DNA of 38,771 nt from Acinetobacter phage TPWB-05, in the sequence record PQ374146.1; one strand, written 5' to 3'. Position 1 is the stretch's first letter, and the number at the start of each line of letters is the position of its first letter. The translations under genes were made by a program, and so were the position numbers. Of the stretch, positions 17,316-20,255 are shown in pieces. A model generated the notes under the pieces. The model was given only the letters and a program-made list of their open reading frames with translations. It was not told the origin of the DNA and did no database searches.

Positions 17316-17704
17316 CCCCCATACGCTTGAGCAGCCGAATCAATAACATTTTTGGCTGCTCGGAATCCGTAGTTATTGCGCTGCATTTTCCCCTGACGCA
17401 AGACATCAGCTGCAGAGAACCCAGCCTGACTTTGATTAAGAGAAGCGTTATAAGCTGCATCTCCCAGAATCTCATCTTCAATCAATGCTGGAATGCCCAC
17501 ATTAACATCAAGACCGTTTTCGGCTGCCGCTGCACGCGCACTGGATGCATCACGACGACCCTGCTCCATCATCTTTTTGGACTGAACTTTAGCTGCTGAT
17601 CTAATCGATTTAGCATTGCCTTTAGCCGTTGCCTCTGCCATCAATGCATTAGAGAGATTGCCAACTGCTTCAAATCCGGATGAAACTGCTCCACCATTAC
17701 ACAT
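17306..17704 (-). CDS. Internal virion protein A-like (132 aa).
   Basis: Position after the tail tubular B / GNAT genes. Small Ala/Gly-rich protein. Confidence 0.4.
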   Translation of the reverse strand: MCNGGAVSSGFEAVGNLSNALMAEATAKGNAKSIRSAAKVQSKKMMEQGRRDASSARAAAAENGLDVNVGIPALIEDEILGDAAYNASLNQSQAGFSAADVLRQGKMQRNNYGFRAAKNVIDSAAQAYGGWK

Positions 17705-17706
17705 GA

Positions 17707-18159
17707 TTAAACCTCCATCTCTAAAACATAGCCGCGTAACTCAAACCCAAGTCCTTCATAAAGCTTTACGACTTTGTCAGCATGAATGCCTGACATGGTC
17801 CCCAACTGGATACGGTCAGCATTGTGAAGTTTGGCCCAGCCAATGAATGCATTAATTAGCGTTTTAGCACTGTCTGAGCGACGATATTCAGGAAGCACGT
17901 AAACACCTTGCTCGAATGCTAACTTGTGCCCTGTGCGCCAATCTGTGTCGATTACGCCGATGATCGTGCCAATTGGATTCTTATACTCATCCACAGCAAT
18001 AAAAATTGATCCAAGCTTTCGGATCAAATGGGTGAAAAGCTCTGATGCGCGGTGCTCATCAAAGCCTTGTTTTGAAAATATTGGGGATTCTTTTGTGAGA
18101 CGCTTGCCGAATTCAACAAGCGTTTCTACGTCCTGCAATGTTGCTGCCCGTACTTGCAT
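17707..18159 (-). CDS. GNAT family N-acetyltransferase (150 aa) embedded in the virion structural operon.
   Basis: GNAT acetyl-CoA binding pattern (VLPEYRRSDSAKTLINAFIGWAK ... RIQLGT). Tightly packed between tail tubular B and the internal virion protein. Confidence 0.8.
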   Translation of the reverse strand: MQVRAATLQDVETLVEFGKRLTKESPIFSKQGFDEHRASELFTHLIRKLGSIFIAVDEYKNPIGTIIGVIDTDWRTGHKLAFEQGVYVLPEYRRSDSAKTLINAFIGWAKLHNADRIQLGTMSGIHADKVVKLYEGLGFELRGYVLEMEV

Positions 18160-18161
18160 CT

Positions 18162-20255
18162 CTATTTCTCATTAATTGATACCAACATAGAGATACTTTG
18201 CACGTGAAAAGGTAGCGGTTTGTTGTGTGTAATCTTCGTCTGCAACTCATGCAGTGATTGCCAGCCTACGAAGTTATCTGTGACATAACCTGTGTACGGG
18301 GCATTGATGAAAGCAGATTGGTTGTAATATTTGGTAGAAAGTTCCTGCCCATTGATATACCCACCTACCGATCCATTCAAGAAAATTGCCATCTCATGCA
18401 CTTGGATCTTATGGAACATTGCAGTTGCCGGCACCTGGCTAAAATCAGGTGGCAACAAATCAACTTCTGAAATGAAGGGCTGTCCGATATGGACTATTTG
18501 TGTCAAATCTTTATCTGGCAAATCTATGCTTAATCCAGTTTTAGTGAATTCTGAATAAAAATACCCATCTGAATTTTGAAAATTAGCCAGAGCTGTGTTG
18601 TGTAATGGAAGATCAAGCCAAGGATTTGTTCCATGTCCATTGACGACAGAGACATCAATCTCACAATCACTTAATGCTATTTCACTAAATTCTTCAAGCA
18701 ATGTTAAGCCGTTACGCTGAGTGAGCATAAAACACTGATCTTCGCCAAGGCCTGTAGGTAATGCACAAATTGAAATTACCTGACAACCGAAATCATGCTG
18801 AGCCCAAGCATTCATCTGCTGATCACGATTCAGTGTAATACTTGAGACTTGCCCATCACCTAGGGCAATCCAAACTACTGAATTAGGTGTTTGTTGATAA
18901 GCAATTTCTCTTATTCCTCCGTGGTCTTCAGGAATATGTTTTGTTGCCGCAGATAATTCAGGAGATTCCAGCCCATCAGATTGGAACTCATAAGACATTG
19001 CACGTAACCTTTCTCCGCCTCGCTGGACAAAAAGGAGCTCACTCCCTACCCGATTAGGCTTCACATTTGATTGCGCCCCGTAAGATGTTTGTTCTTCAAT
19101 CTGGGCAGAACTTGGTGTCAAAGGACCTTGTGAATTTATAAGGAACTCTGCCCCGCCGGTTAATGCGACAACACCACCACGTTGTGACAAGTGCAAAATA
19201 TTGTCGGATTGAGCAGAACTCGACGCAATGCTGAATGCATCCGCATCTTCTGTGGTCTCCAGAAAGTTACCATCATCCCCAATTCGGCTAAACCACATCT
19301 GGTTAGGACTGGTTTTGGTATTGGCAAAGACTAATCGCTGTTTGAAAAAACAAACTGCTTTTGGATAACCTGATGATGCGCTGAAAGCCACACTTCTTAA
19401 TACCCATGATTTCGCAATCGCCTGAATATTCGAGTTTAGCTTTACCAGTACTTCACCGTTTACTCGTGATGGATCAACATATTCAGTGATTTTAACTTGC
19501 CCGCCATTAATCTTGACGATTGACCCAACATCACTTGGTTTGAACACATTAGCTTCTTCATTTGAAACCACTTCCCACTCTGGGGTTGTTAAAGTTGGCG
19601 CAATTCCCTTGTTATCAATAGTTGCACGCCATGTTGCCCCAGCATGAATAACCCGGTCACCAGTCAAGTAGGTTTCCTTATCAGACCAGTTTGGGAAAGA
19701 TGCAGCTGTCAAAGCAATGACCTGACCCACTTCGGTACCTGAAGGAGATAACGCTACGTTCGGCGTGCTACCCAACTCATCATTTGGATAGACCCCAAAG
19801 GTAAAGGGTGAGAATTGCCAGCTGGTAAAGTCTGCTGAACAGAGTAAGCGCTGTACTGGCGTGTCACCCTGAACAAAGTACATGCGGTATTTGGTATGTG
19901 CATACTGCAGCTCACGCACTTTCTGAGTCGAGTTGTATGGAGTTACTGTCTCATACACCACTGAATAAGTTCTTGGGTTATAAACTTTGATGAATGAAAG
20001 GCCAACAATCAGCAAATAAGTATTTTCAGAGTTGGCAATGAAAGGAATTAACCGGACAGCATCAGCAAATATGTCTCGGAATTTTGTTCCCGGTCTTTTC
20101 TTTGCGCCACCTTCCACCAATGGCAAAATGTTTAATAATTTTTTAGATCCATTGGCATATTGCTGAATATCAGTGCGCGTCCAAAGAAGTGGACTCAATT
20201 CACCTGAGCTTAAGTTGTTCTTTAGAATCCACTGTTTCATAGGTAGCGCTCCCAC
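18162..20255 (-). CDS. Tail tubular protein B, gp12-like (697 aa).
   Basis: Follows the gp11-like gene with an overlap. Size is consistent. Assignment is positional. Confidence 0.6.
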   Translation of the reverse strand: MGALPMKQWILKNNLSSGELSPLLWTRTDIQQYANGSKKLLNILPLVEGGAKKRPGTKFRDIFADAVRLIPFIANSENTYLLIVGLSFIKVYNPRTYSVVYETVTPYNSTQKVRELQYAHTKYRMYFVQGDTPVQRLLCSADFTSWQFSPFTFGVYPNDELGSTPNVALSPSGTEVGQVIALTAASFPNWSDKETYLTGDRVIHAGATWRATIDNKGIAPTLTTPEWEVVSNEEANVFKPSDVGSIVKINGGQVKITEYVDPSRVNGEVLVKLNSNIQAIAKSWVLRSVAFSASSGYPKAVCFFKQRLVFANTKTSPNQMWFSRIGDDGNFLETTEDADAFSIASSSAQSDNILHLSQRGGVVALTGGAEFLINSQGPLTPSSAQIEEQTSYGAQSNVKPNRVGSELLFVQRGGERLRAMSYEFQSDGLESPELSAATKHIPEDHGGIREIAYQQTPNSVVWIALGDGQVSSITLNRDQQMNAWAQHDFGCQVISICALPTGLGEDQCFMLTQRNGLTLLEEFSEIALSDCEIDVSVVNGHGTNPWLDLPLHNTALANFQNSDGYFYSEFTKTGLSIDLPDKDLTQIVHIGQPFISEVDLLPPDFSQVPATAMFHKIQVHEMAIFLNGSVGGYINGQELSTKYYNQSAFINAPYTGYVTDNFVGWQSLHELQTKITHNKPLPFHVQSISMLVSINEK

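Follow-up and report, generated by a model that had tools for sequence, protein, structure and literature searches.

A GNAT-fold protein in the internal virion protein A slot of an Acinetobacter podovirus and its putative role in assembly of the ejection apparatus

Introduction

Why does a gene for an acetyltransferase-like protein lie among the genes for the DNA-ejection proteins of a short-tailed phage? The question is raised by Acinetobacter phage TPWB-05 (sequence record PQ374146.1), whose whole stretch of 38,771 nucleotides (nt) is called the window here. A 150 amino acid (aa) open reading frame (ORF) of the GNAT family is found there between the gene for the nozzle, or tail tubular protein B, and the genes for the internal virion proteins (IVPs). 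A preliminary description of this DNA had proposed that the product acetylates virion proteins, or that it is ejected with the core proteins and modifies host targets. The gene is the occupant of the conserved IVP-A slot of T7-, epsilon15- and P22-type phages. Furthermore, in both gene architectures in which the family was found, the gene that comes immediately 3' of the GNAT gene encodes a small ejection-apparatus protein. With some reserve, we consider it probable that the gene encodes a late-expressed, non-virion, IVP-A-equivalent morphogenesis factor, probably still catalytic, which acts on small ejection proteins during core assembly.

The window gene adds one member to a large, already catalogued family of phage GNATs, and the acetyltransferase-like occupant of the slot was already published in 2016 and is written into the epsilon15 RefSeq record. 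The value of the present analysis is in part corrective. Genes of this kind are routinely recorded as morons or auxiliary metabolic genes, while position and conservation tie the GNATs of this slot to assembly of the DNA-ejection apparatus.

The GNAT gene and its product

The gene is read from the minus strand:

17707-18159, minus strand: GNAT-fold protein, 150 aa, IVP-A slot (Acetyltransf_1 42.8 bits; phrog_1249 E 1.1e-36; AlphaFold2 model pLDDT 95.5)

Its ATG is at 18159-18157 and its stop codon at 17709-17707. The preliminary description had placed the gene at 17704-18162. The ORF is there, but its ends had to be corrected, since the wider span also counts one base from each flanking gene, namely the initial base of the start codon of the gene that follows and the final base of the stop codon of the gene before. 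The spacers on either side are 2 nt each (TAG-AG-ATG and TAA-TC-ATG), in agreement with the 2-3 nt first reported.

Assignment to the GNAT family was confirmed by sequence and by predicted fold. The score against Pfam Acetyltransf_1 (PF00583) exceeds the cut-off of 20.7, and Acetyltransf_7 was matched with 35.6 bits (cut-off 27). The match to phrog_1249, annotated 'acetyltransferase', is full length, with residues 1-149 on profile positions 8-156 of 180. This family is large: 5213 representative clusters from a library of 1.84 billion proteins score E <= 1e-10 against it. Finally, an AlphaFold2 model built on 67 sequences has the element order b1-a1-a2-b2-b3-b4-a3-b5-a4-b6, which is that of a GNAT. 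Comparison of the model with the Protein Data Bank (PDB) by Foldseek returned 470 chains at E <= 1e-3, and among the matches listed all are GNATs, with TM scores of 0.7-0.8.

The late-gene order of the window is epsilon15-like, and the stretch as a whole is that of a temperate podovirus, or prophage, of Acinetobacter. A tyrosine integrase is encoded at 930-2156, and Acinetobacter genomes carry annotated close homologues of the GNAT (60-96% identity). The GNAT gene is third in a tight run of minus-strand genes, the other members of which are, in order of reading:

20237-20932, minus strand: tail tubular protein A, adaptor-like, resembling T7 gp11 (phrog_394 'tail protein' 1.7e-62)
18162-20255, minus strand: nozzle, or tail tubular protein B, resembling T7 gp12, 697 aa (PF25675 Phage_nozzle 5.8e-14; phrog_376 1.3e-180)
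17306-17704, minus strand: IVP-B-type small ejection protein, 132 aa (phrog_418 'internal virion protein' 8.6e-20)
15258-17315, minus strand: internal or ejection protein in the IVP-C position, 685 aa, free of cysteine (phrog_992 3e-116; synteny)
12412-15261, minus strand: internal or ejection protein in the IVP-D position, 949 aa (PF01464 SLT 1.3e-6; PF18763 ddrB-ParB 1.5e-42; phrog_11561)

Genes for the portal, a scaffold-like protein and the major capsid protein are upstream of the run; a 1055-aa virion protein, the large terminase and a tail fibre are encoded downstream. The location first described, between tail tubular protein B and the internal virion proteins, was therefore correct: the nozzle gene is upstream of the GNAT gene and the gene for the phrog_418 protein is downstream. 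Both flanking genes belong to the virion module, and neither is an antitoxin-like partner, as the preliminary description had also observed.

A fixed place in the late operon

The preliminary description pictured the gene as wedged into the operon. This picture had to be abandoned. The order nozzle, GNAT, IVP-B was kept in 80/80 contigs from IMG/VR with GNAT identities of 58-81%, and every contig that was long enough had the order major capsid protein, gp11-like protein, nozzle, GNAT, IVP-B, 685-aa protein, 949-aa protein. Median identity was 78% for the GNAT, 75-84% for the major capsid protein, gp11-like protein, nozzle and IVP-B, 50% for the 685-aa protein and 66% for the 949-aa protein. 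The ratio dN/dS against the window gene was approximately 0.13. The GNAT gene is under purifying selection and is conserved to the same degree as its immediate neighbours. Its GC content (0.44-0.46) is like that of its flanks, and it is bracketed by neither a promoter nor a terminator of its own; a weak hairpin inside the ORF (18027-18006) is at chance level. The nearest isolated phage, Alcaligenes phage Piluca, has the identical gene order and a GNAT with 78% aa identity. Gene order is also identical in Yersinia phages YeP4, YeP5 and YeP6, where the GNAT has only 33% aa identity.

These results bear on the view that the gene is a moron or auxiliary gene, such as an AAC(6')-type resistance gene or a lysogenic-conversion enzyme, unrelated to virion assembly. 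Phage papers do list GNATs of this kind as auxiliary metabolic genes (PMC6918029, PMC8024684), the GNAT of a Bcep22-like phage has been called a moron (PMC9144972), and the window protein has weak similarity to NCBIfam AAC(6') models, at best 32.4 bits. However, the cut-off of that model is 320, and another score of 29.3 compares with a cut-off of 140. A moron would also not be expected to have flank-like GC, 2-nt spacers and no promoter or terminator of its own, nor to keep one place in 80/80 relatives and in distant phages. We consider a moron highly improbable. As a candidate function, an AAC(6') resistance enzyme was rejected because the NCBIfam scores are far under the curated cut-offs.

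Two other ORFs of the window are better candidates for inserted accessory genes than the GNAT gene is. They lie at 20883-21347 (minus strand, 154 aa) and 11964-12335 (minus strand, 123 aa), have GC contents of 0.35 and 0.31 compared with approximately 0.44 for the module, and had no match in PHROG or Pfam. The former is located between a terminator that follows the capsid gene and the gp11-like gene. This terminator-like element is a strong hairpin at 21499-21471 (minus strand), just past the major capsid gene, with 12 pairs, 7 of them G-C, and a T-run. Terminators are annotated slightly downstream of the capsid genes in T7 (Tphi) and epsilon15 (rho-independent) as well.

The IVP-A slot of other short-tailed phages

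In T7, gene 13 lies between genes 12 and 14. The epsilon15 protein gp13 (154 aa) is encoded between gp12 and gp14 and carries the RefSeq label 'HHpred: acetyltransferase, GNAT family'; phrog_308 is common to it and T7 gp13. In the late operon of P22, gene 14 is found between gene 26 (tail needle) and gene 7 (ejection protein), and in P-SSP7 the slot is occupied by PSSP7_032, which aligns with the gp13 family (hhalign probability 97%). Because epsilon15 gp14 (1.9e-68) and the 132-aa protein of the window share phrog_418, the window GNAT stands where epsilon15 has gp13.

The proteins in this slot resemble each other in several ways. Like the window protein, gp13 of T7 and epsilon15 (PF11090 Phage_T7_Gp13, phrog_308) is encoded after the nozzle and before IVP-B, is of comparable size (138-154 aa) and has a GNAT fold by models. 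An AlphaFold2 model of an epsilon15-gp13-type protein had a pLDDT of 92.8 and the GNAT fold, and its top Foldseek matches were SpeG, NatC, Ard1 and RimI, from E 6e-9. The gp13 family, unlike the window family, lacks a conserved CoA-loop signature and scores too low for the Pfam GNAT models, which makes the window family the more canonical GNAT. T7 gp13 (positions 3308-3724 of our locus L008) does contain R-L-S-G-K-A, which fits the R-x-x-G-x-A pattern of the loop. This motif is not kept in the gp13 family and is two residues out of register, so the resemblance is probably a coincidence.

The idea that the slot holds an acetyltransferase-like protein comes from earlier work. Hardies et al. 2016 (PMC4819975) reported that T7 IVP-A also matches acetyltransferases and that IVP-A homologues of epsilon15 and P22 are in syntenic position. 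They also assigned a GNAT of phage VpV262 to the IVP-A position, and P22 gp14 is the standard IVP-A homologue in their account. A limited literature search on the function of P22 gene 14 and T7 gene 13 yielded nothing beyond this paper.

The VpV262 protein, ORFS (phiRIO-1 group), is a Pfam00583 GNAT and aligned with the window family (hhalign probability 94%, E 1.2e-7; Foldseek E 6.6e-8). Like the window GNAT it matches Acetyltransf_1, and its gene is directly upstream of genes for a helical protein of approximately 200 aa and a giant internal virion protein. It differs in having only about 15-18% identity, and in that a 90-aa ORF separates it from the tail genes. The protein encoded downstream also differs, starting Met-Ser in VpV262 and Met-Cys in the window. 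P22 gp14 (DUF2824, phrog_651, 'head morphogenesis') has 151 aa, and its YLPEIRG lines up with YVLPEYRR of the window protein, though not significantly.

What is known of IVP-A bears directly on the suggestion that the GNAT is ejected with the core. In the relevant passage of Hardies et al. (PMC4819975), which cites Kemp et al. 2005, IVP-A is described as a 'nonstructural IVP assembly protein' that morphogenesis needs and the virion does not retain. The virion proteome of the T7-like phage phiPsa17 included gp6.7, 7.3, 8-12 and 14-17, and gp13 was not detected (PMC4517105). The T7 precedent is thus contrary to ejection.

The fuller form of this suggestion is an effector or toxin-like GNAT, packaged with the core, that acetylates host targets such as aminoacyl-tRNA. 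There are GNAT toxins of comparable size, and the gene does lie inside an operon for ejected proteins. However, no TacT, AtaT, KacT or ItaT chain was present in the best 60 of 77 PDB profile matches (E <= 0.01) or in the top 50 fold matches, no antitoxin gene is adjacent, and PADLOC gave no match. The analogy with toxins of toxin-antitoxin systems, which the preliminary description had drawn, has no support from these searches. In addition, the compact alpha/beta domain does not resemble the extended, helical proteins that travel through the portal, and a shut-off of translation late in infection would harm the phage. An ejected effector therefore has very little chance of being correct.

A second gene arrangement

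Members of the phrog_1249 family were also found in SP6-like phages (Vectrevirus, Molineuxvirinae) and in Colwellvirinae of the Autographiviridae, with 28-33% identity to the window protein (tblastn E 1e-7 to 1e-18). The family is also present in Vibrio phage Vc1 and Pseudomonas phage Oiolarie. The genes of this group resemble the window gene in being late-module genes immediately 5' of the gene for a small ejection-type protein, and differ in being located upstream of the portal gene, not after the nozzle gene. As observed in LL11, MJG, Vc1, Njord and Oiolarie, the GNAT gene is two genes upstream of the portal gene and is separated from it by an ORF of 58-70 aa. This order, GNAT, small ORF, portal, was present in 35/38 IMG/VR loci of the second, Autographiviridae type. 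Thirty of the second-type loci are long enough to judge; in all 30, IVP-B comes straight after the nozzle gene, without an intervening IVP-A gene. None of the loci examined combined the two placements.

The small ORF resembles the small ejected proteins gp6.7 and gp7.3 of T7 in size and composition, and that of LL11 matches phrog_1320 'host range and adsorption protein' (1.6e-9). The recurrence of the GNAT gene 5' of a small ejection-protein gene in both architectures supports a functional tie to those proteins. A statement of this pairing was not found in a limited literature search.

Active site residues

Across 210 family members the conserved residues are R4 (95%), D10 (98%), E24 (96%), D/E83 (98%), R93 (100%), A/G98 (95%) and Y134 (82%). 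R4, D10, E24 and D/E83 are kept in 95-98% of the members while the sequences otherwise share 20-30% identity. The loop that binds the pyrophosphate of CoA (R/Q-x-x-G-x-G/A, after strand b4) reads R93-R-S-D96-S-A98 in the window protein, that is, the central glycine is replaced by aspartate, and position 96 is variable across the family. The acetyl-CoA signature, said to be intact in the preliminary description, is intact at R93 and A/G98 but not at the central glycine. CoA is bound at this loop via backbone amides, so the loop sequence alone does not decide CoA binding. Y134 aligns with the catalytic Tyr128 of Dpa, the 1,3-diaminopropane acetyltransferase of A. baumannii. We read the conserved residues as a putative preserved pocket. 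From the Pfam GNAT score, the invariant R93, a tyrosine at the general-acid position and the invariant acidic residues we infer that the protein is still a putative acyl-CoA-dependent N-acyltransferase.

Since Dpa (PDB 8a9o/8a9n) is the best solved relative by both profile (8a9o, E 2.3e-12, residues 2-138) and fold (Foldseek E 4e-10, TM 0.78) and shares the catalytic tyrosine, we considered whether the protein might be a late acetyltransferase of a small-molecule amine, such as 1,3-diaminopropane, spermidine or another polyamine. Such an enzyme could tune DNA counter-ions for packaging or ejection, or blunt polyamine-based interference. SpeG tops the matches of the epsilon15-gp13-type model, functional spermidine N-acetyltransferases are encoded by diverse phages (PMC9992855), and 1,3-diaminopropane is made by the host genus (PMC10267138). 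The residues argue otherwise. Of the acidic centre of Dpa (Y21, Y25, Y65, Y128, D80, D81 and E116) only Y128 is matched, by Y134. D80, D81 and E116 align to Q84, G85 and G120, and Y21, Y25 and Y65 align to L21, a non-conserved position and V69, respectively. With six of the seven active-centre residues not conserved, a Dpa-like polyamine pocket was rejected. Dpa has 24% identity to the window protein, leads dozens of unrelated small GNATs by a small margin, and its gene is a chromosomal regulator gene of the host, not a gene of a phage late operon. A metabolic role would also leave the constant link to a small ejection-protein gene in two architectures unexplained. Polyamine acetylation thus appears distinctly unlikely.

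The conserved residues also bear on whether the protein needs to be an enzyme at all. It might be a non-catalytic GNAT-fold chaperone or scaffold that, as T7 gp13 may do, binds internal proteins in core assembly, its GNAT motifs being a relic. The gp13 family of T7 and epsilon15 has the GNAT fold without the conserved R/Q-x-x-G-x-G/A loop, and Pfam describes gp13 as a 'probable scaffold protein'. In the window family, Y134 is changed to Phe in 15% of members, and the window protein itself has Asp for the central Gly of the loop. Conversely, the family is well above the Pfam GNAT thresholds, and retention of R93, A/G98, R4, D10, E24 and D/E83 at such low overall identity is the pattern of a pocket, not of a mere binding surface. 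We regard a non-catalytic chaperone as unlikely, though less so than any other alternative considered here.

Proposed role

As a morphogenesis factor in the IVP-A slot, the small GNAT-fold protein would be expressed from the late virion operon along with the ejection proteins. T7 gp13 serves as the analogy: the protein would act in morphogenesis on the internal or ejection proteins and would not itself be kept in the particle. Of the functions first proposed, acetylation of virion proteins would be the preferred mechanism. The substrate, most economically, would be the product of the next gene, because the next gene encodes a small ejected core protein in every architecture seen. Candidate targets are IVP-B in the window and the gp6.7/7.3-like protein in SP6-like and Colwellvirinae phages.

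Several results weigh against this proposal, and the first group concerns descent. The window GNAT had no match to PF11090, PF11039 or phrog_308. Profiles of 67 and 210 sequences, aligned by hhalign with a 27-sequence alignment of the gp13 family, gave probabilities of 39% and 17% over 15-17 N-terminal columns, and P22 gp14 compared with the window family gave a probability below 1%. Comparison of the window family with the gp13 family and P22 gp14 by hmmsearch with filters off was negative. Homology was sought with profiles and the 210-sequence alignment against single sequences and the 27-sequence gp13-family alignment; IMG/VR scans with epsilon15 gp13 and P22 gp14 gave only near relatives (84-100% and 94-100% identity, respectively). 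Homology in sequence to T7 gp13, epsilon15 gp13 and P22 gp14 is therefore not claimed, as only the N-terminal strand M-x-I/V-R-x-A-T aligned and nothing was significant. Since there is no significant alignment, IVP-A equivalence rests on fold and position. Either deep divergence or displacement by another GNAT is compatible with equivalence of the slot, and the slot might have been taken over by a non-orthologous GNAT with another task.

The second group concerns catalysis. The central glycine of the CoA loop is aspartate here and variable in the family, and because the gp13 family has no conserved CoA loop, IVP-A function may not need catalysis. A separate result is that recombinant T7 gp14 reaches membranes without gp13 (PMC8954989).

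Because the window family keeps canonical GNAT features that are lost in T7 gp13, it is the more tractable system for asking about catalysis and about small ejection proteins as substrates.

Met-Cys starts of the small ejection proteins

Since the candidate substrates are small ejection proteins, their N-termini are of interest. IVP-B starts with Met-Cys in the window (MCNGG), Piluca, YeP5, epsilon15, T7, two further T7-like contigs and P-SSP7. Cys2 is the sole cysteine of the window IVP-B. It is present in 60/60 window-clade loci in which the downstream ORF was called (79 examined) and in 78/80 epsilon15-clade loci, the remaining two having no ORF called.

The small protein encoded just before the portal begins in the same way in the window (MCGGG), Piluca_036 (MCGGG), YeP5 (provided that it is read from an in-frame ATG further upstream), epsilon15 gp3 (MCIGSKP) and T7 gp6.7 (MCFSPK). 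In the window it is encoded as follows:

25136-25366, minus strand: 76-aa ORF directly upstream of the portal gene, with an MCGGG start (phrog_9015 2.7e-31; weak phrog_1320 match, 0.031)

Here too Cys2 is the only cysteine. From its position, size and composition the 76-aa protein is a possible counterpart of small ejected proteins of the T7 gp6.7/gp7.3 type, and the window IVP-B and 76-aa protein may correspond to T7 gp14 and gp6.7, respectively. T7 gp14 and gp6.7 form the outer-membrane section of the DNA channel, as revealed by cryo-electron microscopy (PMC11784390), and ejection proteins are otherwise depleted of cysteine (PMC11445570). The Met-Cys start was absent in VpV262, SP6-like phages, Colwellvirinae phages and P22.

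The recurrent Met-Cys start suggests that the N-terminus of the small ejection proteins is a modification site, perhaps for the neighboring GNAT. A specific form of this idea is that GNATs of the IVP-A slot transfer an acetyl or other acyl group to the N-terminus of small ejection proteins at Cys2, exposed after removal of the methionine. Cys2 is invariant in the T7, P-SSP7, epsilon15, YeP5 and Piluca/window lineages, in proteins that have no other cysteine. We hold such a modification to be improbable. If true, it would account for IVP-A being required for infectivity while missing from virions, and it would represent a previously undescribed cytoplasmic N-terminal modification system in phages. 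A limited literature search found neither an explanation nor a modification of Cys2 in gp14 or gp6.7.

Two start codons in public annotation are probably mis-called. The YeP5 ORF upstream of the portal gene (about 1425-1649 of our locus L003) is annotated from a GTG, and an in-frame ATG 10 codons upstream gives MCGGTPNV. A T7-like gp14 from Logan (1916-2503 of our locus L292) is called from Met11; 30 nt further upstream there is an ATG-TGC-TGG that has a good Shine-Dalgarno sequence.

Other features of the window

In the 949-aa ejection protein, an SLT lytic transglycosylase domain (residues 363-436) is accompanied by a strongly matched ddrB-like domain of the ParB superfamily (residues 527-655, E 1.5e-42). 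The latter is unusual for an internal virion protein. In the nozzle, residues 189-213 gave a sub-threshold match to the carbohydrate-binding model CBM_5_12 (E 1e-3), and the orthologue in Piluca, annotated 'carbohydrate-binding protein', has a match to a chitin-binding domain.

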